From the sequence record NC_035464.1: a DNA stretch of 9,780 nt; one strand, written 5' to 3'. Every line of letters starts with the position of its first letter. The stretch's first letter is position 1. The notes beneath the pieces are model-generated. The model was not told the DNA's origin. It saw only the letters and a list, made by a program, of their open reading frames with translations, and made no database searches. Below, piece after piece: positions 1 to 9,780 of this stretch. Both the position numbers and the translations under genes were made by a program.

Positions 1-318
1 CCCCCCCCCCCCATGCTGAAAGGGAGGGCGAGACCTAGCCTACCCCCCCCAGAGCAGGGGGTTTAAAAGCCACGTCAGTTTGACGGATCACCACGCAAGT
101 TGAACGCGGGGAGGGTTTAAATACCCCCCCTAGCATGAAAGCTTATTAACCCCAGGGGTTTTTGTCCTAATGCGAATGAGCAAATTACAGCCCATAATAC
201 GCCCTGCCCCGCCCTGCAAGTACACTTTACGACACAAACCGAAAGTAAACCTCAGAGTGAAGGGTTCTCTCCAACAGGGCAAAAAGCATTTTAACCCCCC
301 CATCACGACCTTCCGCAA
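1..318 (+). repeat. Left inverted terminal repeat (318 bp)
   Basis: Compared base by base with the reverse complement of 9463-9780: identical except at 17/9764 (T vs C) and 228/9553 (T vs A). Identity ends after TTCCGCAA at 318. Confidence 0.99.
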
Positions 319-410
319 AATAATTGGTCAGTCGTGGCTAAATTAAGTGAAGACTTTGTTTAGGTAGTTTCGGTGGAGGGTGTGGCTAATAAGGGACAGT
401 AAAGGTCACC

Positions 411-767
411 ATGTCGTCAAACCAGTCTAACCCAAAAAAGGAGGTCTCCCTGGAGGAGTTTTTTGAGGCCGTGAAGGACGAGGTGATCCCCCTGAGAATG
501 ATAGCGGGGGATTACGTAGTCCTAGAGGGCGTCCACATGGAGAACCTCAGGGACGGAAAGAACGGCAAGATAGTTGATGTGGTGGGCAGGATCGTCGTCA
601 CGAACATGGGCCTACCTGAGGGCCAGAAAGTCAGGTTCACGTTAGGCCTCTCGAACGCCATGGAAGTCGCCCATCATATAAAGGACGGCATAAAGTACAC
701 CATGATCAAGAAGGGGGAGATGAGGATAGTTGTTAATGGGTTTAGCGAGATCCCCAAGAGACTCTAG
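411..767 (+). CDS. Hypothetical protein, 118 aa; possible OB-fold ssDNA-binding protein
   Basis: ATG start and first gene after the left ITR. By eye the pattern is beta-beta-beta-alpha-beta-beta (YVVLEGV / IVDVVGRIVV / KVRFTL / SNAMEVAHHIKDG / YTMIKK / MRIVVN). The fold call is inference (about 0.3). Confidence 0.85.
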   Translation: MSSNQSNPKKEVSLEEFFEAVKDEVIPLRMIAGDYVVLEGVHMENLRDGKNGKIVDVVGRIVVTNMGLPEGQKVRFTLGLSNAMEVAHHIKDGIKYTMIKKGEMRIVVNGFSEIPKRL

Positions 768-1083
768 AGACGCTGAGGTATACCTAGTCAGGCCCCTGAA
801 GGGCGTTTTTTCCCTCCAAGACCACGCTTTTCTCGTCACGGTACGTGGCGTCTTCCCACGGAAGGGCGAGTTCACTCGAAAGAGCCACTGGGGCCTCATG
901 GTGGACGTGGACGTGGACGGCCTGTCCCTAAGGTTTAGGTCTAAACTCTACTTCACGTGGCAAGTGGAGATGGGCGGTAGGCCGTGGGCTTTCGTGCCCG
1001 TGTACGGCTGTGCCGATATAATCCAGGAGTACGGATACCAGAGAGGTGTGGCCATATGTCAAAAATTGAAGTTGAGCAGGTAG
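736..1083 (+). CDS. Hypothetical protein, about 115 aa
   Basis: The ORF track starts at TTG 730. ATG 736, downstream of GAGGA (722-726), is preferred. Overlaps the preceding gene; aromatic and beta-rich; no recognisable motif. Confidence 0.75.
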   Translation: MGLARSPRDSRDAEVYLVRPLKGVFSLQDHAFLVTVRGVFPRKGEFTRKSHWGLMVDVDVDGLSLRFRSKLYFTWQVEMGGRPWAFVPVYGCADIIQEYGYQRGVAICQKLKLSR

Positions 1084-1460
1084 TCAAGTACATATTGGAC
1101 CATCCTAGTACCTTCCTATGGTACAGGTGGTACCTGAGACAGAGGCACCACTTACCGTTCTTCTCGCTCACGTACAGTGAGGACTTACGACAGAAGGGGG
1201 TGCCAGTGGACATGACCAGGGATAAGGAGGTAGTCGTGTTGGTGCCTATATACACCCCATACGGCGTAGGCGGTGCTGAGGTCTTGTTGTCTACCCCAGA
1301 TAAGGTTATGTGGAGTGACGACGACTTCGCCTTCTTCGGCAACTGGAAGTTTTACGGGAAGTTCGCGTGGATGGTCTCGCTGAACCGAAAACACCCCCTG
1401 AGGCGGTACGCCCTGAACGAGATGAGGAAGGAGGCGAGGATGTATGCAGGCAAGTCCTGA
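1056..1460 (+). CDS. Hypothetical protein, 134 aa (aromatic- and Arg-rich)
   Basis: Start moved from 984 to ATG 1056, which follows the RBS GAGGTG (1043-1048) and gives only a short overlap with the previous gene. Confidence 0.85.
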   Translation: MSKIEVEQVVKYILDHPSTFLWYRWYLRQRHHLPFFSLTYSEDLRQKGVPVDMTRDKEVVVLVPIYTPYGVGGAEVLLSTPDKVMWSDDDFAFFGNWKFYGKFAWMVSLNRKHPLRRYALNEMRKEARMYAGKS

Positions 1461-2010
1461 CATGGGGGCATTAACCCGCGCAGGGTATAGAGTGACGGCC
1501 CGTTGGACGTGGAACGACGTCACTAGGGCCATGTATTGTTTTGAGACATCTAGGACAGCTAACGACTTCGTGGGGTGCGTCAAAAAGCGTAGGACTGACG
1601 CCCTCGCTGTCTACCGATACCTACGAGACGTCCAGTCCCATCAGGGACTGATATATGAGGTACTCCCGCCCGCATTCCAGGGCAACCCAGAGGAAGAGGA
1701 GGGGGAGGGGGAAGAGACTTGTATCACCTTCGTGGTCTACGACACGGGGTACTTCTTCCTCTGGGTAGACCCTAACCAGATCCTTCAAGACGCCTTAGAC
1801 GCTAACGCGACCATGAGGATCAAGTACCCTGGGGCCTACCGTGTCATCACCACGCCGTATGACCTAGATTTCTCTCAAATAGCGTGGAGGCCCATAGTGC
1901 CGTCGGGCGAGGACTACGTGATATGTAGTAACATGGACCGTGTGGACTTCAGTGACGCGATAGACAGGTACGTCAGACAGCTGAAGGCGATAATGGGGGC
2001 GATATCATGA
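1444..2010 (+). CDS. Hypothetical protein, 188 aa, with an acidic linker (PEEEEGEGEE)
   Basis: ATG 1444 (alternative ATG 1462 just after the upstream stop). Its TGA overlaps the next ATG (ATGA 2007-2010). Confidence 0.88.
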   Translation: MQASPDMGALTRAGYRVTARWTWNDVTRAMYCFETSRTANDFVGCVKKRRTDALAVYRYLRDVQSHQGLIYEVLPPAFQGNPEEEEGEGEETCITFVVYDTGYFFLWVDPNQILQDALDANATMRIKYPGAYRVITTPYDLDFSQIAWRPIVPSGEDYVICSNMDRVDFSDAIDRYVRQLKAIMGAIS

Positions 2011-2336
2011 TCACGTTAGACCACGATGTACCATATGACGGGTATAGACATTCGGCGAAAGGGAAACTCGTCGTTGAGTTTTGCAAGTCGTTCGAACTGA
2101 GGTGTTGGTATAGGCGTTCGTCTACTGGGAACGTCCACGTGGCTATCGACGTGGACGTGGACTTCCTCAGAGAGTTGGAAATCAGGGCCGTCTTACTCGA
2201 CGACCCCATGAGGATATTGAACGACTTGCGTCGGCACGCATTCCACATGCCTACTGGACGGCTCTGGGACGTGAAGGTGGATAGGGAAGGCAAAAGGCAG
2301 GCGGGCCAGTGGGAGGTCTTGTTCTCCCCTGAGTAG
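2007..2336 (+). CDS. Putative minimal AEP-superfamily primase/polymerase-like protein, 109 aa
   Basis: ATGA-coupled start. Motifs occur in AEP order: ITLDHD (hhhDxD; D5, D7), WYRRSSTGNVHV (SxxGxH; H44), LLDDP (D65/D66). The CDS is well supported; the function is inferred (about 0.5). Confidence 0.88.
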   Translation: MITLDHDVPYDGYRHSAKGKLVVEFCKSFELRCWYRRSSTGNVHVAIDVDVDFLRELEIRAVLLDDPMRILNDLRRHAFHMPTGRLWDVKVDREGKRQAGQWEVLFSPE

Positions 2337-2338
2337 GG

Positions 2339-2345
2339 TTTTTTA
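2339..2345 (+). terminator. T6 tract ending the first operon; may also serve as the TATA-like element of the next gene
   Basis: TTTTTTA lies 2 nt after the TAG at 2336 and 31 nt before ATG 2370. Oligo-T tracts are established archaeal intrinsic terminators. Confidence 0.6.
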
Positions 2346-2369
2346 CTCCACATATCCTACTTGTATCGT

Positions 2370-2747
2370 ATGAGTCAAAGTCAGCCTACTCAGGAACAAA
2401 CCCCCCCACAAGAGGAGGGGAAGGACGAGAGCCAGTGGACGGAATGTGAAGTCTGTGGGAAGAAAGTGCGGATGAACATGTACAAACGTCATATGTCTGC
2501 GGTGCATGGGTTCATTACGAAAGAGGAGTACCAGAGGCTCAAAGAGGAGGTGGAGAAGACTATACAATCTACGATACACAGTGCACTCCAGGAGCACTGG
2601 AAGGGGCACTACAAAAGCTTAAGCGAACTTCTTGAGGAAGGGGAAAAACATGCCGAGACGTGTCCTACATGCCAAAAGGAGTTGGAGGAGTGGCTCAAGA
2701 AAAAACGGAACGAGAAATACAAACCCGCTAATAGGAAGTGGCTCTAA
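2370..2747 (+). CDS. C2H2 zinc-finger protein, 125 aa (putative transcription regulator)
   Basis: CEVC-x11-H-x4-H at 2445-2507, a second HxxxCPTC cluster and a basic C-terminus. ATG 2370 is preferred over TTG 2361. C2H2 proteins are common in crenarchaeal viruses. Confidence 0.88.
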   Translation: MSQSQPTQEQTPPQEEGKDESQWTECEVCGKKVRMNMYKRHMSAVHGFITKEEYQRLKEEVEKTIQSTIHSALQEHWKGHYKSLSELLEEGEKHAETCPTCQKELEEWLKKKRNEKYKPANRKWL

Positions 2748-3209
2748 ATGACCAAGAAGAAGAAGGAGGAACAGGAGGCCCCTAAGGAGGAGGGGCAGGC
2801 CACTCCCGAAACCCCAAGTCCTGAAACCCCTCAGGAGCCTCAGAAGGAAGACCCCGTTCAGGTCATCATGAGGCTGACGACCGTAATACAGGAACAGCAG
2901 AAACGTATAGACCAGTTGGAAGCAAACCTCAACAGCGTGATGGAATTCCTGAAGGCACAATCCCAGGCACCCCAAGGTCAGGGAGGAGGAGGGGGTCTAG
3001 TGGAGGCACTAGTACCCCTCTTAGGGAAGTTGATGGAGCCTTCGAAAGACCCCCTACGGGATATCGCCCTAGAACTAATGATCGACAGCATGAAATCGAA
3101 CGTTGAGCTCTCGAAGGCCATAACACAGAAGATCATCCAAGGGGTGCAAGACCGAGTCGCGAGGAACGTCGTGGAGACTGTCGCCACGGGGGTGATTACA
3201 CACGAATGA
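2748..3209 (+). CDS. Coiled-coil protein, 153 aa, with a disordered E/P/Q-rich N-terminus
   Basis: TAA-ATG junction with the upstream gene; heptad-like segment IQEQQKRIDQLEANLNSVMEFL; Gly5 linker. Confidence 0.9.
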   Translation: MTKKKKEEQEAPKEEGQATPETPSPETPQEPQKEDPVQVIMRLTTVIQEQQKRIDQLEANLNSVMEFLKAQSQAPQGQGGGGGLVEALVPLLGKLMEPSKDPLRDIALELMIDSMKSNVELSKAITQKIIQGVQDRVARNVVETVATGVITHE

Positions 3210-3243
3210 GCGTATTAGAATTATCAACTTAACAAGGAAGTTA

Positions 3244-3366
3244 ATGATTGAACTGGGGGTGGGTACGTACTACCCCATGGTACAATACCGTCTTACCAGT
3301 CTCCCAGAGGAACAGATAAAGAGGGCGTATAAAATCATAAGGGATGAGGTGAAAACGTGGCCATAG
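3244..3366 (+). CDS. Small hypothetical protein, 40 aa (MIELGVGTYYPMVQYRLTSLPEEQIKRAYKIIRDEVKTWP); not in the ORF track
   Basis: Translated by hand. It fills the gap between two genes, looks helical and amphipathic, overlaps the next GTG start and contains that gene's RBS. The true start may lie upstream (see findings). Confidence 0.7.
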   Translation: MIELGVGTYYPMVQYRLTSLPEEQIKRAYKIIRDEVKTWP

Positions 3367-3674
3367 TCCATGAGGAGGTAACGTTTCATACTGAAGTGGA
3401 TGATGAGAGCGTAGAGGCAATCAGGAGGATCATAAGGGACCAGTGTGGAGAAAACCCAAAGCCTGAATGTTGGGGCCCGTTGGTGTGGTCCATGTTCGAC
3501 AGCGTGGCCCGTGCCATCCCGTGCCCAAAGTGCCGAGGGGAGGCACTGGAATTCCTGACCTTTTTGCATGATTTAATTAACATACAGAAGGGTAGTGCTA
3601 TATACAATACCCCGCAATTCCTTAGGAAGAAAAAGGAAGAGATACTGAGCCTACTCAGGACCCGAGGGATATAA
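3357..3674 (+). CDS. Miniature Erv1/Alr-like (poxvirus E10-type) sulfhydryl oxidase, 105 aa
   Basis: GTG start after GAGGTGA (3346-3352). Motifs NPKPECWGPLVW, IPCPKCR and FLHDLINIQKG match the Erv signature WGxxxW...PCxxC...HNxVNxxxG. The CDS is well supported; the function is inferred (about 0.65). Confidence 0.9.
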   Translation: MAIVHEEVTFHTEVDDESVEAIRRIIRDQCGENPKPECWGPLVWSMFDSVARAIPCPKCRGEALEFLTFLHDLINIQKGSAIYNTPQFLRKKKEEILSLLRTRGI

Positions 3675-3682
3675 TATAAATA
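3670..3682 (+). promoter_or_regulatory. TATA box of the structural-gene operon
   Basis: TATAATATAAATA in an otherwise GC-rich genome, with TATAAA at 3675-3680, 38 nt before ATG 3713. Confidence 0.65.
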
Positions 3683-3712
3683 GGAGAACTGATGTAACTA
3701 TGGTAGAGAGCC

Positions 3713-3979
3713 ATGGTGTCCAATAGAGAACTCGCCAAAAGGCTCAGCCAGTCGGCCAGGGAGGCGTGGAATTCAGAGGAGGGCATGAGGATCAGAGAGG
3801 AGCTAAGTGCAGACTCTGCCTCCTATGGGGCGTGTCTGAGGAGAGTCATGGAAAGTGGAGGAGGCAGTCGTGGTTACAAGGATTGCGCGAGGAGGTCAGG
3901 AATAGGTACGGCGTTTGCCAGTGTCTGGGGGTCTACAAAGGCCTATGGTAGGCCGATGGTGGAAGTAGTAGCGAGGTGA
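3713..3979 (+). CDS. Basic, helical 88-aa protein; candidate genome-coating nucleoprotein
   Basis: ATG start; first gene behind a strong TATA box; Arg/Ser/Gly-rich with two Cys. The function is inferred from position and charge. Confidence 0.88.
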   Translation: MVSNRELAKRLSQSAREAWNSEEGMRIREELSADSASYGACLRRVMESGGGSRGYKDCARRSGIGTAFASVWGSTKAYGRPMVEVVAR

Positions 3980-3984
3980 CCTAG

Positions 3985-4314
3985 GTGGACTTCTCCAGAC
4001 AAACGTGGGAGGGGCCAGTGGCTGTTGGCGTCGGCGGGTACGTGTGGAACAAGGTAAAGGGGAACACGCAAGTTCAGACGTTCGTGAGCAAGGTAGGTGG
4101 CAAGACGAATGCAGGGCTCATCTTAGTGGCCCTAGGCGTAGTCGCTAAGGCATACAAACCCGAGTCAGAAGCCATGAATATACTGGGGTACCTGTTGGCG
4201 GGACTCGGTGCGGGGGCACTCGGTGACGACTTGCCCGCCACTGGGTCACAGGCGACGTTTACGAATAAAAGCCCAGAGTACCCTAGTCCAGTTAGTGGGG
4301 TGAACGTGCTGTGA
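3985..4314 (+). CDS. Membrane protein, 109 aa (candidate virion internal-membrane protein)
   Basis: GTG after RBS GAGGTGA (3973-3979); hydrophobic GxxxG-rich segments (AGLILVALGVVA; ILGYLLAGLGAGALG). Confidence 0.88.
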   Translation: MDFSRQTWEGPVAVGVGGYVWNKVKGNTQVQTFVSKVGGKTNAGLILVALGVVAKAYKPESEAMNILGYLLAGLGAGALGDDLPATGSQATFTNKSPEYPSPVSGVNVL

Positions 4315-4724
4315 AACTCTACATGAAAACGATTGAGATCCAATATTCCATCCCTGCGAGTGCACCATCCGAGTCACAGGTGCCTGGAGTGTTCATAGAC
4401 CTCTCCAGTGGCACTAGCCAAGGCCAACTCCAAGTCCCCGTGAACCAAGAGTGGGTCATCATAGACGTCTACAACAGGGGGTCTCAGGACGTCGGCGTAG
4501 ATGCCGTGGCGACGTTCACTAAGAACAGCGTCTCCAACGTCCTCACTACGGACCCAGTCTCATCCCTGAACATCTCGAACCCATCCAGACCAACCTACCC
4601 GCCAATACAGATGGCCCCAGGGACGATATTGACCTCCAAAGTCACTACGCTCACGTCCAACGGCACTAGTGCGGCCGTGGATAACCTATTCATAAAGGTC
4701 AAGATCATAGACTACTCGCAGTAA
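4311..4724 (+). CDS. Beta-rich 137-aa protein; candidate single jelly-roll major capsid protein
   Basis: GTGA-coupled start after GGGGTGA (4297-4303); alternative ATG 4323. Alternating hydrophobic beta patterns throughout (TIEIQYSI, EWVIIDVYN, DAVATFTK, TILTSKVTT, LFIKVKII), no TM segment, last gene of a strongly promoted operon. The MCP call is inference (about 0.5). Confidence 0.9.
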   Translation: MKLYMKTIEIQYSIPASAPSESQVPGVFIDLSSGTSQGQLQVPVNQEWVIIDVYNRGSQDVGVDAVATFTKNSVSNVLTTDPVSSLNISNPSRPTYPPIQMAPGTILTSKVTTLTSNGTSAAVDNLFIKVKIIDYSQ

Positions 4725-4743
4725 ACACGCGTAAGACATCTCC

Positions 4744-4750
4744 TTTTTTA
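4744..4750 (+). terminator. T6 tract ending the core structural operon; possible promoter element for 4773
   Basis: TTTTTTA lies 19 nt after the TAA at 4724 and 29 nt before ATG 4773. Confidence 0.6.
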
Positions 4751-4772
4751 GTAGTATTTCCTTCTTTATAGT

Positions 4773-5450
4773 ATGGCATGCCAGACTATACAAGACCTAT
4801 CGATAGGCCCGTACACCATAGAATCGGGTCAGGTCTGTGTGGAGGGCACTACCTCAGGGACGGCTAGCCTGACTATGAAAGTGGGGCCGTTCACGTACAC
4901 CAAGACTATCCCATGGGGGGCGGTAAACCCCCAACAGACGTTGGGTACGTCCTCAGGGAGGGTCTACCTTATCGGGACGAACCCCCTGTCGTCACTCCTA
5001 GTGGACGACGTCCTAACGGTGGCTGAGTATGCACAGAAAGTGGCGTCGTACTTAGGGTACAGCGGTTCGTTTTCCATAGTGAACGTGGGTTTGACGAATG
5101 GCTCAGACTGCAACGACTGTGTAGTTTACGTGGACTACGTCGCCTCTTCTCCTCCTCTTGCGGTAGCCCTAGTGATCGCTCTCGTGATCGTTTTCGTCAT
5201 AGCTATCGTATTGGGTATCTATTTCATTTCGGCCGCGATAGAGAGTTTTCAGCCCGCACCTCCCACGCCCCCTCCTCCAGGGAGTCCCCCGTCCCTGTAC
5301 CAACAGTACTACCAGGAGTACGCCCAGTATTTGAAGGAGAAACAAACGGCCTCAATCACGGGAGGGGTATTCGGCACGTCCACGGCCCTAGTGGCGTTAG
5401 GGATAGCCATTTTAGCCTTCTTGGCGTTTACTGACCATGGTGGGAAGTGA
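4773..5450 (+). CDS. Membrane-anchored virion protein, 225 aa (beta-rich N-domain, two TM helices, poly-Pro linker)
   Basis: ATG start; TMs LAVALVIALVIVFVIAIVLGIYFI and TALVALGIAILAFLAF; PAPPTPPPPGSPP linker; four Cys including CNDC. Confidence 0.92.
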   Translation: MACQTIQDLSIGPYTIESGQVCVEGTTSGTASLTMKVGPFTYTKTIPWGAVNPQQTLGTSSGRVYLIGTNPLSSLLVDDVLTVAEYAQKVASYLGYSGSFSIVNVGLTNGSDCNDCVVYVDYVASSPPLAVALVIALVIVFVIAIVLGIYFISAAIESFQPAPPTPPPPGSPPSLYQQYYQEYAQYLKEKQTASITGGVFGTSTALVALGIAILAFLAFTDHGGK

Positions 5451-5734
5451 TGGTGTACCAGATATACGACGGGCAATACACGGTTTACCCCGTGGGAAAC
5501 CCCCAGGTCACGCTCATCAGGGTAGACGTAGCGGGGAGAGTGAAAATCATGATCCTCCCCACGGTGTCAGAGGCCCTTCAACTGACCCTGAACGGAAACT
5601 CAGGTTACCTGAACCAGGGAAACGTCCTCTCGGCGGGAAATTGGTACGAGTTCGAATACGTGAGTTGTGGGAAAGACATCATAAGCATAAATGGGACACA
5701 GCAAGGAGTTTACCTTAGGGTGATAGTGTATTGA
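5447..5734 (+). CDS. Small beta-rich protein, about 95 aa; candidate penton/vertex protein
   Basis: GTGA-coupled start (or ATG 5450); all-beta pattern (TLIRVDV, VKIMIL, LQLTLN, WYEFEYV, IISIN, VYLRVIVY); lies directly upstream of the spike candidate. Confidence 0.85.
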   Translation: MMVYQIYDGQYTVYPVGNPQVTLIRVDVAGRVKIMILPTVSEALQLTLNGNSGYLNQGNVLSAGNWYEFEYVSCGKDIISINGTQQGVYLRVIVY

Positions 5735-6750
5735 TTAGAGGTCAGATACACAAACTCTCCAAGTGGGAGTTAAGGGACTACGCTAGGACACTAGTCCCCG
5801 TCTTTGAATCCCACGAGGTGGACGGCACTAGGGACATGAAAATCGTGGACGCCGTGATATCGTACGCCATGAAAGGGACGAAACCCTGGCTGAGGAGGGG
5901 GTCAGCCCTCCAGGGCTTTATAGGGCCTAGGATGTCTGTCCTCGAGGGTTACCTCATCTTCCCCACGTCAGGTATTGAGCCCGTGACCATCCAGTCCACT
6001 ACCCTAGAGAACTCCTACCTAGTCCTAGATATCGTGGGGGCAGGTGGAGGAGGTGGTGGTGGAGGTGGTGGGAACACCACGGCCACTACCCCGTTCGCCC
6101 AGGGTGGTGGAGGTGGGGGAGACGGTGGCCGTCTCATTATCAGGACCCAGGGGCCACTAGTCTCTGGGACCCAGTTCACAGCCCAACTGGGAGGGCCAGG
6201 TGGGACAGGTGGAGGGACAGGTGCCACAGGGACACCAGGTTCAGCACCAAACGGGGCGACTCAGGTAGTCCTAGGGAACGGCACACTCACGCTCAGTGTG
6301 TCAGGTGCGTCAGCCCCTACCATGCCCCCGACAGCAGGAGGACAGGAGGCAGGAGGGTCAGGAGGTGCAGGAGGGTCAGCAGTGTTCACGTACTTGCCAA
6401 CGACGCCCATATTCTCGGCCATACAGTTGAACCCAAGGACGTCCTTCCTCTCGAATTACTCGGGCGTACTGGACCAGGGTATTGGTGGAGACGGCGTTGG
6501 GTCTGAGTACTTCACCCTGTCCAACGCCACGCCTATATTCGTCTCGACGCCACAAGGAACGAGGGTCACTGGGGGAAGCCCAGGGGGCACAGGCACCTCA
6601 GCCACGGCGAACGTCCCCTCTGGGGCAATCCCGCTCAGGGGGTCAGGTGCAGGAGGAGGAGGGGGACAGAACTCCTCTTCCGCCCCAACAGCGGGAGGGA
6701 ACGGCGGGTCTGGAGGGCCTGGACCTATCATTATCTTGGTGATAGGATGA
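5731..6750 (+). CDS. Glycine-rich spike/turret (receptor-binding) protein, 339 aa
   Basis: TTGA-coupled TTG start after GGGTGA (5718-5723). The pattern hDhVGAGGGGG...GGGGGxGG...GGxGGxGG...GSGAGGGGG...GGNGGSG resembles the glycine-rich domains of phage tail and spike proteins. Confidence 0.9.
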   Translation: MIRGQIHKLSKWELRDYARTLVPVFESHEVDGTRDMKIVDAVISYAMKGTKPWLRRGSALQGFIGPRMSVLEGYLIFPTSGIEPVTIQSTTLENSYLVLDIVGAGGGGGGGGGGNTTATTPFAQGGGGGGDGGRLIIRTQGPLVSGTQFTAQLGGPGGTGGGTGATGTPGSAPNGATQVVLGNGTLTLSVSGASAPTMPPTAGGQEAGGSGGAGGSAVFTYLPTTPIFSAIQLNPRTSFLSNYSGVLDQGIGGDGVGSEYFTLSNATPIFVSTPQGTRVTGGSPGGTGTSATANVPSGAIPLRGSGAGGGGGQNSSSAPTAGGNGGSGGPGPIIILVIG

Positions 6751-6965
6751 CAGACTTGGTCACCGTGGCAGTGTTAGGGGTACAGACGGCCGTTTTCATC
6801 TACGCTAGTGCCAAACTGAGGAAGATGAGCGAGATGGCCGACAAGTTGGCGTCAGCCCTGTCCAACATAGCAAAGGAGATAGAGACGGCGTCCATGGACA
6901 TGAAAAGCATACAAAGGGAGATGACAGAACTGGAAGACTTAATTCGGACAGCACTGAGGGAATAG
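6747..6965 (+). CDS. 72-aa protein with an N-terminal TM helix and a coiled coil
   Basis: ATGA-coupled, RBS GGTGA (6738-6742); hydrophobic LVTVAVLGVQTAVFIYA followed by heptads. Confidence 0.88.
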   Translation: MTDLVTVAVLGVQTAVFIYASAKLRKMSEMADKLASALSNIAKEIETASMDMKSIQREMTELEDLIRTALRE

Positions 6966-6967
6966 GT

Positions 6968-7378
6968 ATGAGCTGTCAGACATGTGGTCAGCAGGGCGTG
7001 TGTTACGTCCTGGAACACGTGGGTACTGAGCCCATCTATATAAACGGGCAACAGTACGGCCAGGGCGACTTTTGTTTCTCCTCCCCTGAGCTCACGATAG
7101 AATACCAGGGCGTACAGTACCAGATCGACATGTCCTACGCCCCCACAGTGCAGAACATATACGGGTGTTGTCCCTCAGGTACCACAGCCAAACTCACGAC
7201 GGTGACTACGATACAGGGACAGAACACTCCCATATTCGTCCCGTATGCCGTCCTAGTGTCTCAAGGTACCACGTCCACTAGTAGTACCACGCCTAGTGTC
7301 CTAAGTAAGGTACCGTGGTGGCTCATCATACTACTCGTCATACTGGGGGCTATACTCCTAGGAGGAGGAAACCCATGA
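6968..7378 (+). CDS. Cys-rich tail-anchored virion protein, 136 aa
   Basis: ATG 2 nt after the upstream stop; six Cys; Thr/Ser stalk; C-terminal TM WWLIILLVILGAILL. Confidence 0.9.
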   Translation: MSCQTCGQQGVCYVLEHVGTEPIYINGQQYGQGDFCFSSPELTIEYQGVQYQIDMSYAPTVQNIYGCCPSGTTAKLTTVTTIQGQNTPIFVPYAVLVSQGTTSTSSTTPSVLSKVPWWLIILLVILGAILLGGGNP

Positions 7379-8481
7379 ATTACACTTGGTACGTGCAGAA
7401 CCAAGACCCCTCGACGATCCAGTTCTGTGTCATGCAGTCTGGAGGGTATAACAACTGCACCTCAATACCAGGGAACAGCACAGAGCCGTTCACGATACCA
7501 GACATGGACGTGCAGATATATGGCACCCCCACGGGGTACTACGTGTACTACTCTAGCGTTGGGGTGAAGACTAGTACCAAGTCCCTCCCGTCATCAGGAT
7601 CAACGATCACGGTGCCCCCATACACGGGATGTGACCCCCTACTCACGCAAGGACAGGGGTACCCCCCACTCGTGCCGTGTTCGTCCCCGTTGATCTTCCT
7701 GAAGAGCGAGAGCACCCCTGCCATGTTTATCGAGAACTGGGGGGCAGAGACGTCAGGGTTTTCATACGGGTACGGGATAGCGGGGAGCCAATTGGCCATA
7801 GCGACAGGGCCAAACTGGGTATACTACCGACAGTACCCCCAGGCACAGGTATACCTTATCGGAAACTGGAAGGTGGTGAACGGAAACTACGTAGACATGG
7901 ACTCGGGGAAAACGTTCTGTGGGTGCCAGGGGAAGAGCGTGTACGTCATACCCACGTCTGACCTACCTGGGCCGTCCTCAGGGACTACGTCCACAGGGAC
8001 TAGTACCACGGGGACTTCCACGAGTACAACAGGGACTCCCACAGGGACGTCCACTCAGCAGACGACACAGCCCACGACAGGTATCCTGAACGTGGCTAAC
8101 CAGTGTTCGACGGGGGTAGTCGTGTACGCGGGAGGGAAAACGGCATACGCACCCCCATACCATTCCATCAGCCTAGAAGTACCCATCCCCACGGGGTATA
8201 CGCTTATTAGCCAGGGTCAGACAGTTGGTAAGGGGACGGTGTACCAGAGCGGGGAGTACGTGTCCCCAAGTTCTTGTCCCTCTGTTAGCCCTACACCCAG
8301 CCCTACCCCGACACCGTCCCCAACTGGGGGACAGACCACTTCCACGACTACGACTACCACGACTACCCAGACCACTTCAACACAGACTACCCAGAACACA
8401 CAGCCCCCAACGACGCCTAGCATGTCGTGGGGTCTTATCCTACTCTTGGTAATCCTGGGGGCACTAGCCCTCTCAAGTTAA
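7375..8481 (+). CDS. Multi-domain tail-anchored virion/adhesin-like protein, 368 aa
   Basis: Start moved from 7315 to the ATGA-coupled ATG 7375 after GGAGGAGG (7361-7368). Beta-rich domains separated by Thr/Ser/Pro stalks; eight Cys; C-terminal TM WGLILLLVILGALAL. Confidence 0.92.
   Translation: MNYTWYVQNQDPSTIQFCVMQSGGYNNCTSIPGNSTEPFTIPDMDVQIYGTPTGYYVYYSSVGVKTSTKSLPSSGSTITVPPYTGCDPLLTQGQGYPPLVPCSSPLIFLKSESTPAMFIENWGAETSGFSYGYGIAGSQLAIATGPNWVYYRQYPQAQVYLIGNWKVVNGNYVDMDSGKTFCGCQGKSVYVIPTSDLPGPSSGTTSTGTSTTGTSTSTTGTPTGTSTQQTTQPTTGILNVANQCSTGVVVYAGGKTAYAPPYHSISLEVPIPTGYTLISQGQTVGKGTVYQSGEYVSPSSCPSVSPTPSPTPTPSPTGGQTTSTTTTTTTTQTTSTQTTQNTQPPTTPSMSWGLILLLVILGALALSS
7981..8055 (+). repeat. Imperfect tandem GGGAC...CCAC repeats encoding GT(T/S)(S/T)T units
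   Basis: gggactacgtccaca / gggactagtaccacg / gggacttccacg / gggactcccaca / gggacgtccact. Confidence 0.75.
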
Positions 8482-9462: not shown

Positions 9463-9780
9463 TTGCGGAAGGTCGTGATGGGGGGGTTAAAATGCTTTTT
9501 GCCCTGTTGGAGAGAACCCTTCACTCTGAGGTTTACTTTCGGTTTGTGTCGTTAAGTGTACTTGCAGGGCGGGGCAGGGCGTATTATGGGCTGTAATTTG
9601 CTCATTCGCATTAGGACAAAAACCCCTGGGGTTAATAAGCTTTCATGCTAGGGGGGGTATTTAAACCCTCCCCGCGTTCAACTTGCGTGGTGATCCGTCA
9701 AACTGACGTGGCTTTTAAACCCCCTGCTCTGGGGGGGGTAGGCTAGGTCTCGCCCTCCCTTTCGGCATGGGGGGGGGGGG
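9463..9780 (-). repeat. Right inverted terminal repeat (318 bp)
   Basis: Reverse complement of 1-318 with two mismatches; ends in G12. Confidence 0.99.

Follow-up and report, generated by a model that had tools for sequence, protein, structure and literature searches.

The 9780-base window analysed here, that is, the whole stretch of DNA at its full length, is the complete genome of the Metallosphaera turreted icosahedral virus MTIV1 (MF443783.1), with a 100% match from end to end. It encodes c105, a small protein that we identify from its sequence as a shortened homologue of the Erv/E10 sulfhydryl oxidases and that is predicted to pair head to tail with its own copy. According to the consulted sections of earlier reports (PMC5867849, PMC10101205), the genome of MTIV is linear and has inverted terminal repeats, the virus contains an inner membrane, and MTIV3 and STIV3/SPV3 are its relatives. 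Long inverted terminal repeats lie at positions 1 to about 300 and about 9480 to 9780 of the window, with homopolymer C and G runs at the tips.

A first-pass annotation of the window had read the region 3713-8481 as a possible compact viral disulfide system, in which an Erv-like oxidase acts, possibly through a CxxC relay, on tail-anchored proteins with even cysteine counts, convergent with the E10-A2.5-G4 relay of poxviruses. We find this interpretation partly supported: its general idea is right, the evidence offered for it is weak and the relay is probably mistaken.

GenBank lists 21 genes for MTIV1, with c105, b88, a109, c137 and a339 labelled structural and the rest hypothetical. The gene c105 and the virion module that follows it are arranged as below.

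3357..3674, plus strand: c105, half-Erv protein with Gly40/Trp44, Pro55-Cys56-x-x-Cys59, His71-Asp72-x-x-Asn75 and an extra Cys30/Cys38 pair; modelled as a likely homodimeric flavin adenine dinucleotide (FAD) sulfhydryl oxidase.
3713..3979, plus strand: b88, soluble structural protein (GenBank) with Cys41/Cys58; best-conserved candidate substrate.
3985..4314, plus strand: a109, structural protein (GenBank) with no Cys and with apolar glycine-rich stretches.
4311..4724, plus strand: c137, capsid protein candidate with no Cys (Pfam SPV1_VP4, E 7.3e-5, below the cut-off).
4773..5450, plus strand: c225, membrane protein; two hydrophobic segments on the C-terminal side, a conserved pair Cys3/Cys22, and Cys113/Cys116 in close relatives only.
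5450..5734, plus strand: b94, with a single Cys that is not conserved.
5731..6750, plus strand: a339, glycine-rich structural protein with no Cys (Pfam Gly_rich_2 at the cut-off).
6968..7378, plus strand: b136, tail-anchored, with 6 Cys, two of which form a CxxC at the N-terminus; relatives detected in three close genomes only, one of them a 69-residue piece.
7375..8481, plus strand: a368, tail-anchored, 8 Cys, with a Thr/Ser/Pro-rich stalk; relatives detected in three close genomes only.

Homology of c105 to the Erv/E10 oxidases

As a single sequence c105 matches Pox_E10 (PF04805) at E 0.16 only, and PF04777 not at all. A profile built from 23 close homologues and searched against 1.84 billion proteins (E≤0.001) collects a family of 91 cluster representatives. 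The spacings from Trp to Cys and from Cys to His are 12/12 in 89 of the 91 members, the exceptions being one 3-residue insertion and one truncated piece; canonical viral Ervs have 35/30 in 118/120 sequences of a closely related set, and ALR and pB119L have 35/29, as read off alignments. Trp44, Cys56, Cys59 and Asp72 are invariant among the 78 sequences of alignment A3, which holds 76 of the 91 representatives, c105 itself and a further close homologue; the other 15 representatives, being overlong, fused or truncated, were excluded.

When the family profile is compared with the PDB, ALR, Erv1, Erv2 and pB119L of African swine fever virus (ASFV) take the first 15 of 22 matches (best E 1.9e-4), in the form of separate collinear pieces. 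The narrower profile A1 finds no Erv among its PDB matches. HHalign against 24 PF04777-positive giant-virus Ervs gives a probability of 97.7% and E 1.5e-12 over 59 columns, with gaps of 23 and 18 residues. By these profile comparisons the c105 family is homologous to the Erv/E10 oxidases and lacks two blocks of 23 and 18 residues. The Erv-like gene named in the first-pass annotation is thus a true Erv/E10 homologue, and the idea of a convergent system is not supported, because c105 and E10 are homologous. A compact Erv-type homologue is present in this archaeal virus; its half-size Erv domain and its occurrence beyond archaeal viruses had been missed.

Pro55-Cys56-x-x-Cys59 stands at the start of helix 57-78 of the AlphaFold2 model, as does the redox CxxC of the Ervs. 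Trp44, His71 and Asn75 of the Erv-type flavin residues are retained in c105, while the His of helix 1 is replaced by Asp48 and an Asn by Asp72. Across the 91 sequences, at roughly 20-35% identity, the best-kept positions are the Gly, Trp, His and Asn and the Gly-Lys that follows, positions that line the flavin site of the Ervs. The extra pair Cys30/Cys38 is shared by the 23 close homologues without exception and by MTIV3; of the two SPV3 copies one has it and the other does not. A membrane anchor is predicted in 34 of 92 family members and none in c105. The family tree, made with a quick method, leaves 54 of 89 inner branches open, and no conclusion is drawn from it.

Neither Pfam nor NCBIfam names the family, and NCBIfam holds no relevant entry for the 78 aligned members; PHROG 32547, labelled "virion structural protein" and without any oxidase annotation, is matched by every one of them. 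The ESM Atlas gave no usable match for c105. We note that some members (L015:112-816; P0054, P0059) carry a C-terminal glycine-rich apolar fusion that looks by eye like the a109-type membrane proteins; in contig L015 the fusion gene is followed by two paralogous capsid candidates of the 193-residue type.

Predicted dimer and proposed working of c105

AlphaFold2 models c105 with helices at 16-30, 36-53, 57-78 and 86-102 (mean predicted local distance difference test, pLDDT, 83.9; predicted template modelling score, pTM, 0.59). The CxxC lies at the turn of the 36-78 hairpin, with Trp44, His71 and Asn75 at its far end, 12 to 16 residues off. In the Erv bundle the CxxC and the Trp/His/Asn are brought together within one chain. 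In the c105 model they stand at opposite ends of a hairpin of continuous helices, so that a lone chain could not close the FAD site. c105 has no four-helix bundle within one chain, given the two missing blocks, the 12/12 spacing and the two continuous helices, and nevertheless it most likely acts like an Erv oxidase. Structure searches with the single-chain model yield no significant match. In Foldseek the Ervs come near the top at non-significant template modelling (TM) scores, 0.22-0.31 overall and 0.22-0.28 to solved Ervs; there is no match at E≤0.001 in the PDB, and in the viral library only c105 itself is found. VIA wide returns generic helical matches (best Z 6.0, root-mean-square deviation 6.5, 76 aligned) with no Erv among the best 50 listed, which does not exclude the Erv family.

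The closure of the site is predicted to come from a second chain. A c105 homodimer predicted with two FAD scores 0.92, as against 0.00 for the best of 3 controls; among solved structures, 20/30 pairs and 1/23 single chains attain that mark, ratios that apply here only approximately. Between runs at least 72% of the contacts coincide, with pLDDT of at least 83. The top contacts (43-54', 39-54', 47-50', 43-53') set the first helix of the hairpin, helix A, antiparallel to its own copy, so that Ile54-Pro55-Cys56 comes to lie against Trp39-Trp44 of the partner chain. In the model, c105 forms a head-to-tail homodimer, a four-helix bundle made of two antiparallel chains. Covariation was computed from 100 ungapped cores with seven near-invariant columns dropped (1070 pairs), and the pair 39-55 ranks first. 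On the antiparallel diagonal of helix A 7/25 pairs fall in the top 5%, versus 2/50 off the diagonal (p=0.005). The hairpin diagonal is not enriched as a whole (6/90 vs 10/222), yet four hairpin pairs stand among the top 14.

We suggest the following working of c105. Two hairpins (helices 36-53 and 57-78) would pair antiparallel into a four-helix bundle with two sites, each predicted FAD site taking its CxxC from one chain and its Trp/His/Asn from the other. Electrons would pass from the substrate thiols to Cys56-Cys59, then to FAD and to oxygen. In this way b88, c225 and similar virion proteins would receive their disulfides directly, while the particle is assembled in the cytoplasm. The Cys30-Cys38 pair, at the dimer interface by Trp39 and the active end of the partner, may be a built-in shuttle that replaces A2.5/G4. 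In the Metallosphaera host c105 probably supplements the cytoplasmic disulfide machinery of the cell rather than replacing it. We consider it reasonably likely that c105 is such a shortened Erv/E10 homologue, a head-to-tail dimer with FAD between its chains, which oxidises virion proteins of the b88/c225 type directly during cytoplasmic assembly.

Several points weigh against this reading. Among the 89 family members scanned with Pfam none attains the cut-off, and 31 have weak PF04777 or PF04805 matches (E≤0.05). The helix-1 His position is His in 50 of the 91 members, Glu in 22 and Asp in 9, c105 itself having Asp48 there, and the Asn after the second Erv His is replaced by Asp in all 91. The score of 0.92 covers the pairing of the chains, with FAD included but unscored and the flavin pose unseen, and it may stem from likeness to solved Erv structures. 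The second helix of the hairpin, helix B, gives no antiparallel covariation signal (1/22 vs 2/58, p=0.62), and the diagonal was picked post hoc from the model, with sequences that are largely those behind the fold.

The same facts can be read in another way, namely that c105 is an Erv-derived dimer that has lost FAD binding and whose CxxC and His/Asp make up a metal site or a structural virion disulfide. The Asp at the helix-1 position in MTIV1, the structural annotation of c105, the failure of the single-chain model to superpose on Erv and the unscored FAD would all agree with it. However, the positions lining the flavin are the best kept of the whole family, and a metal site would not need them, so we regard the loss of FAD as quite improbable and retain the dimeric oxidase as our reading of c105.

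Cysteine counts, neighbouring genes and candidate substrates

The cysteine observations of the first-pass annotation are partly confirmed. The counts hold for b88 (2), c225 (4), b136 (6) and a368 (8), the capsid and spike candidates c137 and a339 have none, and the two CxxC motifs are located as CNDC at 113-116 of c225 and CQTC at 3-6 of b136. Membrane segments were called by Kyte-Doolittle hydropathy in a 19-residue window, with no signal-peptide predictor: in c225, b136 and a368 they are internal or C-terminal and never N-terminal, as claimed, at 138-156 and 199-217 (and, weaker, 117-135) of c225, 115-133 of b136 and 349-367 of a368, and every Cys precedes the first of them. By hydropathy this topology fits C-terminal anchoring with the Cys facing the cytoplasm; on the opposing side, none of the three is annotated as a virion protein in GenBank. 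b88 has no membrane segment. The four even-Cys products are real, and b94 of the same range (5450-5734), with 1 Cys, had been left out of the set. The oxidase-like gene does lie upstream of b88, but at 3357-3674 it falls outside the region 3713-8481 assigned to the system.

The weight of even counts was assessed with a length-matched binomial. The four picked proteins are even in 4/4 cases (p=0.034), all Cys-bearing proteins within 3713-8481 in 4/5 (p=0.099), those of the whole MTIV1 genome in 9/11 (p=0.006) and those of genes outside the module in 4/5 (p=0.080). In Sulfolobus turreted icosahedral virus (STIV) 12 of 15 Cys-bearing genes are even (35 of 36 genes counted, the incomplete first gene excluded), and neither the c105-family profile nor the canonical Erv profile has a match there; this also speaks against our reading of c105, since it shows a host able to make such bonds. 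The excess of even counts in MTIV1 is real at the level of the genome and is not particular to the anchored proteins. Being genome-wide, and found in STIV without the gene, parity marks a disulfide-rich host and not a viral pathway, and as proof of such a pathway it is rejected.

These numbers lend themselves to a different explanation: machinery of the protein disulfide oxidoreductase (PDO) type of the host makes the MTIV1 disulfides, c105 is active or once was, in a narrow or dispensable role, and the tail-anchored proteins are no special targets. The inclusion of non-virion genes in the even set and the behaviour of STIV fit it, as does the detection of b136 and a368 in close relatives only. 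The consulted part of PMC3177088 likewise describes thermophilic archaea as having more even-Cys proteins than expected and Sulfolobus viruses as rich in disulfides, with PDO as the presumed host catalyst. Host machinery alone would leave the gene neighbourhood aside, however. Seven MTIV-like modules were compared: the window, the IMG/VR genomes L002-L004 (found via c105), MTIV3 (L006) and the SPV3 modules L007 and L008, both also within record L005; the MTIV3 and L008 records are partial. In 7/7 a c105 homologue is kept directly 5' of a b88 homologue, down to about 33-40% identity, and when isolated phages are searched independently with c137 and with b88, the records retrieved are again the five that lead the c105 matches. 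As the gene also stands beside even-Cys anchored proteins in contigs with likely bacterial hosts (below), we consider the purely host-made route unlikely and keep to direct oxidation by c105.

The co-occurrence of oxidase and cysteine-rich anchors, named in the first-pass annotation as a check, holds in part: c105 accompanies the virion module throughout, and its counterpart in virus-like contigs with likely bacterial hosts lies beside tail-anchored even-Cys proteins. Relatives of b136 and a368 were detected in L002-L004 only, and these two are not supported as core partners. Both Cys of b88 are retained in 8/8 matches. Cys3/Cys22 of c225 are retained in 6/6, Cys113/Cys116 in the 3 close ones only. 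Because of this conservation b88 and the Cys3/Cys22 of c225 are the best substrate candidates; b88 is also a candidate A2.5-like partner by its gene position only. We note that SPV3 record L005 (OQ473816.1) holds two full sets of c105/b88/a109/c137/c225 homologues, at 1-5545 and 12098-16800, with an N run between them; the sets match the separate records L007 and L008, and L005 may join two different viruses.

The full model of the first-pass annotation, in which c105 passes disulfides to a CxxC relay (c225 or b136) and this to the other anchored proteins, as in E10-A2.5-G4, appears very improbable. The N-terminal CxxC of b136 is retained in 3/3 close relatives, and an 87-residue CxxC protein with a hydrophobic C-terminus is present in MTIV3, both of which would suit a relay. 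However, the b136 match in L003 is a piece without the anchor, and the c225 homologues of MTIV3 and SPV3 have lost the CNDC while keeping Cys3/Cys22; on this ground c225 CNDC is rejected as the relay. No thioredoxin-family Pfam match was found in 20 of the 21 annotated MTIV1 proteins (a40, 40 residues with no Cys, was excluded) or in the relatives scanned, so that the G4 of the poxvirus relay has no counterpart. Two observations concern these loci. At L003:7074-8647 the b136 homologue has 69 residues and the a368 homologue next to it is longer (456 residues, 10 Cys), suggesting a domain exchange between the two anchored proteins. The MTIV3 protein (L006:6633-6896) has a layout like that of b136 with no detectable homology to it.

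Contigs with likely bacterial hosts come from the context of subfamily A4: L013, a contig in a Bacteroidia metagenome-assembled genome record, and the metagenome contigs L014-L019, of which L014 and L019 are too short. L013 and L016 encode murein hydrolases (PF01832, E 2.9e-34; SLT, E 1.2e-3), numerous small membrane proteins and, by eye, an ATPase candidate; they also have in common a capsid candidate with Cys, at 25% identity. We infer that they are tailless membrane viruses, with the capsid protein as a candidate only: the capsid candidates of L013/L016 and of L015 have no Pfam or PHROG family and no PDB match (model pLDDT 31), and the ESM Atlas gave no usable match for that of L016. Both copies of the shared candidate (L013:5521-6285, minus strand; L016:3556-4281) contain 6 Cys and have one CxxC at aligned positions; this protein may itself be a substrate.

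In these virus-like contigs the A4-subfamily gene adjoins tail-anchored even-Cys proteins. Among 70 open reading frames (ORFs) chosen by eye from L013 and L015-L018, Cys-bearing membrane proteins are even in 13/16 cases (p about 1e-4), including all 6 C-terminally anchored Cys proteins, and Cys-bearing soluble ones in 9/17 (p=0.17). These statistics rest on ORFs picked by eye, with homologues included, from one subfamily and with no gene-free membrane phages as a control, and periplasm-facing proteins would likewise show even counts. The family profile has no match in 400 other genomes of the phylum of L013's genome, hence the gene does not look like a housekeeping one there. Context scans of another four subfamilies yielded either nothing or the false matches L020 and L022, and hence no genuine locus; L009 was also discarded as a false match, and alignments A3 and A6 are too diverse to seed such a scan.

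Two further cysteine-bearing genes lie outside the virion module. All four Cys of a188 (1444-2010) are retained in five relatives, down to 30% identity. c125 (2370-2747) has two CxxC motifs with weak zinc-finger Pfam matches, also present in MTIV3; zinc binding is the likelier reason for its even count.

Possible origin of the fold and known systems

In a full Erv the Trp helix comes first; next are a helix that ends in Pro-Cys and one that starts at the CxxC, and the last helix ends in His-x3-Asn. This arrangement, in which a hairpin sits inside the turn of a second one, is also the geometry of the predicted c105 dimer. The first helix of ALR ends in a Pro 11 residues past the Trp, an offset identical to that of c105, and in HMMER the short-family profile also aligns ungapped across the first two ALR helices. 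We note that these features are suggestive of a nested-hairpin origin of Erv from a c105-like half; they come from one protein, ALR, and a derived double deletion in the c105 family fits equally well. That a half-Erv enzyme, a two-FAD oxidase made of two hairpins, is widespread in tailless membrane-containing archaeal and bacterial viruses and represents the ancestral state of Erv is possible but doubtful.

If so, the insertion of one hairpin copy into the CxxC turn of another would yield the exact helix order of E10, pB119L and ALR, and viral disulfide bonding of tail-anchored virion proteins in the cytoplasm would be older than the poxviruses and giant viruses. If the bacterial-host cases hold, small phages would form disulfides in a reducing cytoplasm with an enzyme of their own. 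A catalytic core of roughly 50 residues that has to be completed by a second chain would be an architecture new to the Erv family. With it, a protein without a name in a cultured thermophilic virus would gain a function, and the origin of the Erv fold a concrete possible route. The consulted sections of PMC4555120 place Erv1/Alr in eukaryotes, some proteobacteria and cyanobacteria, and cytoplasmic DNA viruses, and those of PMC11654684 describe virus-encoded Erv oxidases from eukaryotic large DNA viruses; our literature search, largely without subscription papers, found no report of them from archaeal or bacterial viruses.

Compared with the Erv/ALR proteins (PF04777; ASFV pB119L 3gwl, yeast Erv2 1jr8, ALR), c105 has Gly-x3-Trp, Pro-CxxC and His-x3-Asn followed by Gly-Lys in the same order. 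It differs in being 41 residues shorter between the motifs, in the hairpin of its single chain in place of a four-helix bundle, with the site predicted between two chains, in the family-wide Asp for Asn after the His, and in Pfam scores below the cut-off in all 89 members scanned. Vaccinia E10-A2.5-G4 (PF04805), as described in the consulted part of PMC1318495, is likewise a virus-encoded Erv-type protein accompanied by C-terminally anchored Cys-rich proteins. MTIV1, whose c105 is annotated as structural and resembles Pox_E10 only weakly on its own, has no thioredoxin-like G4, and no A2.5 has been identified in it; according to the sections consulted of PMC11654684, E10 is one full Erv domain, of which c105 is a half-sized homologue. 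With the host-made disulfides of thermophilic archaea and their viruses, for which PMC3177088 gives PDO as the presumed catalyst, MTIV1 shares even Cys counts across the viral genome. That route requires no viral enzyme, and STIV fits it; MTIV adds c105.

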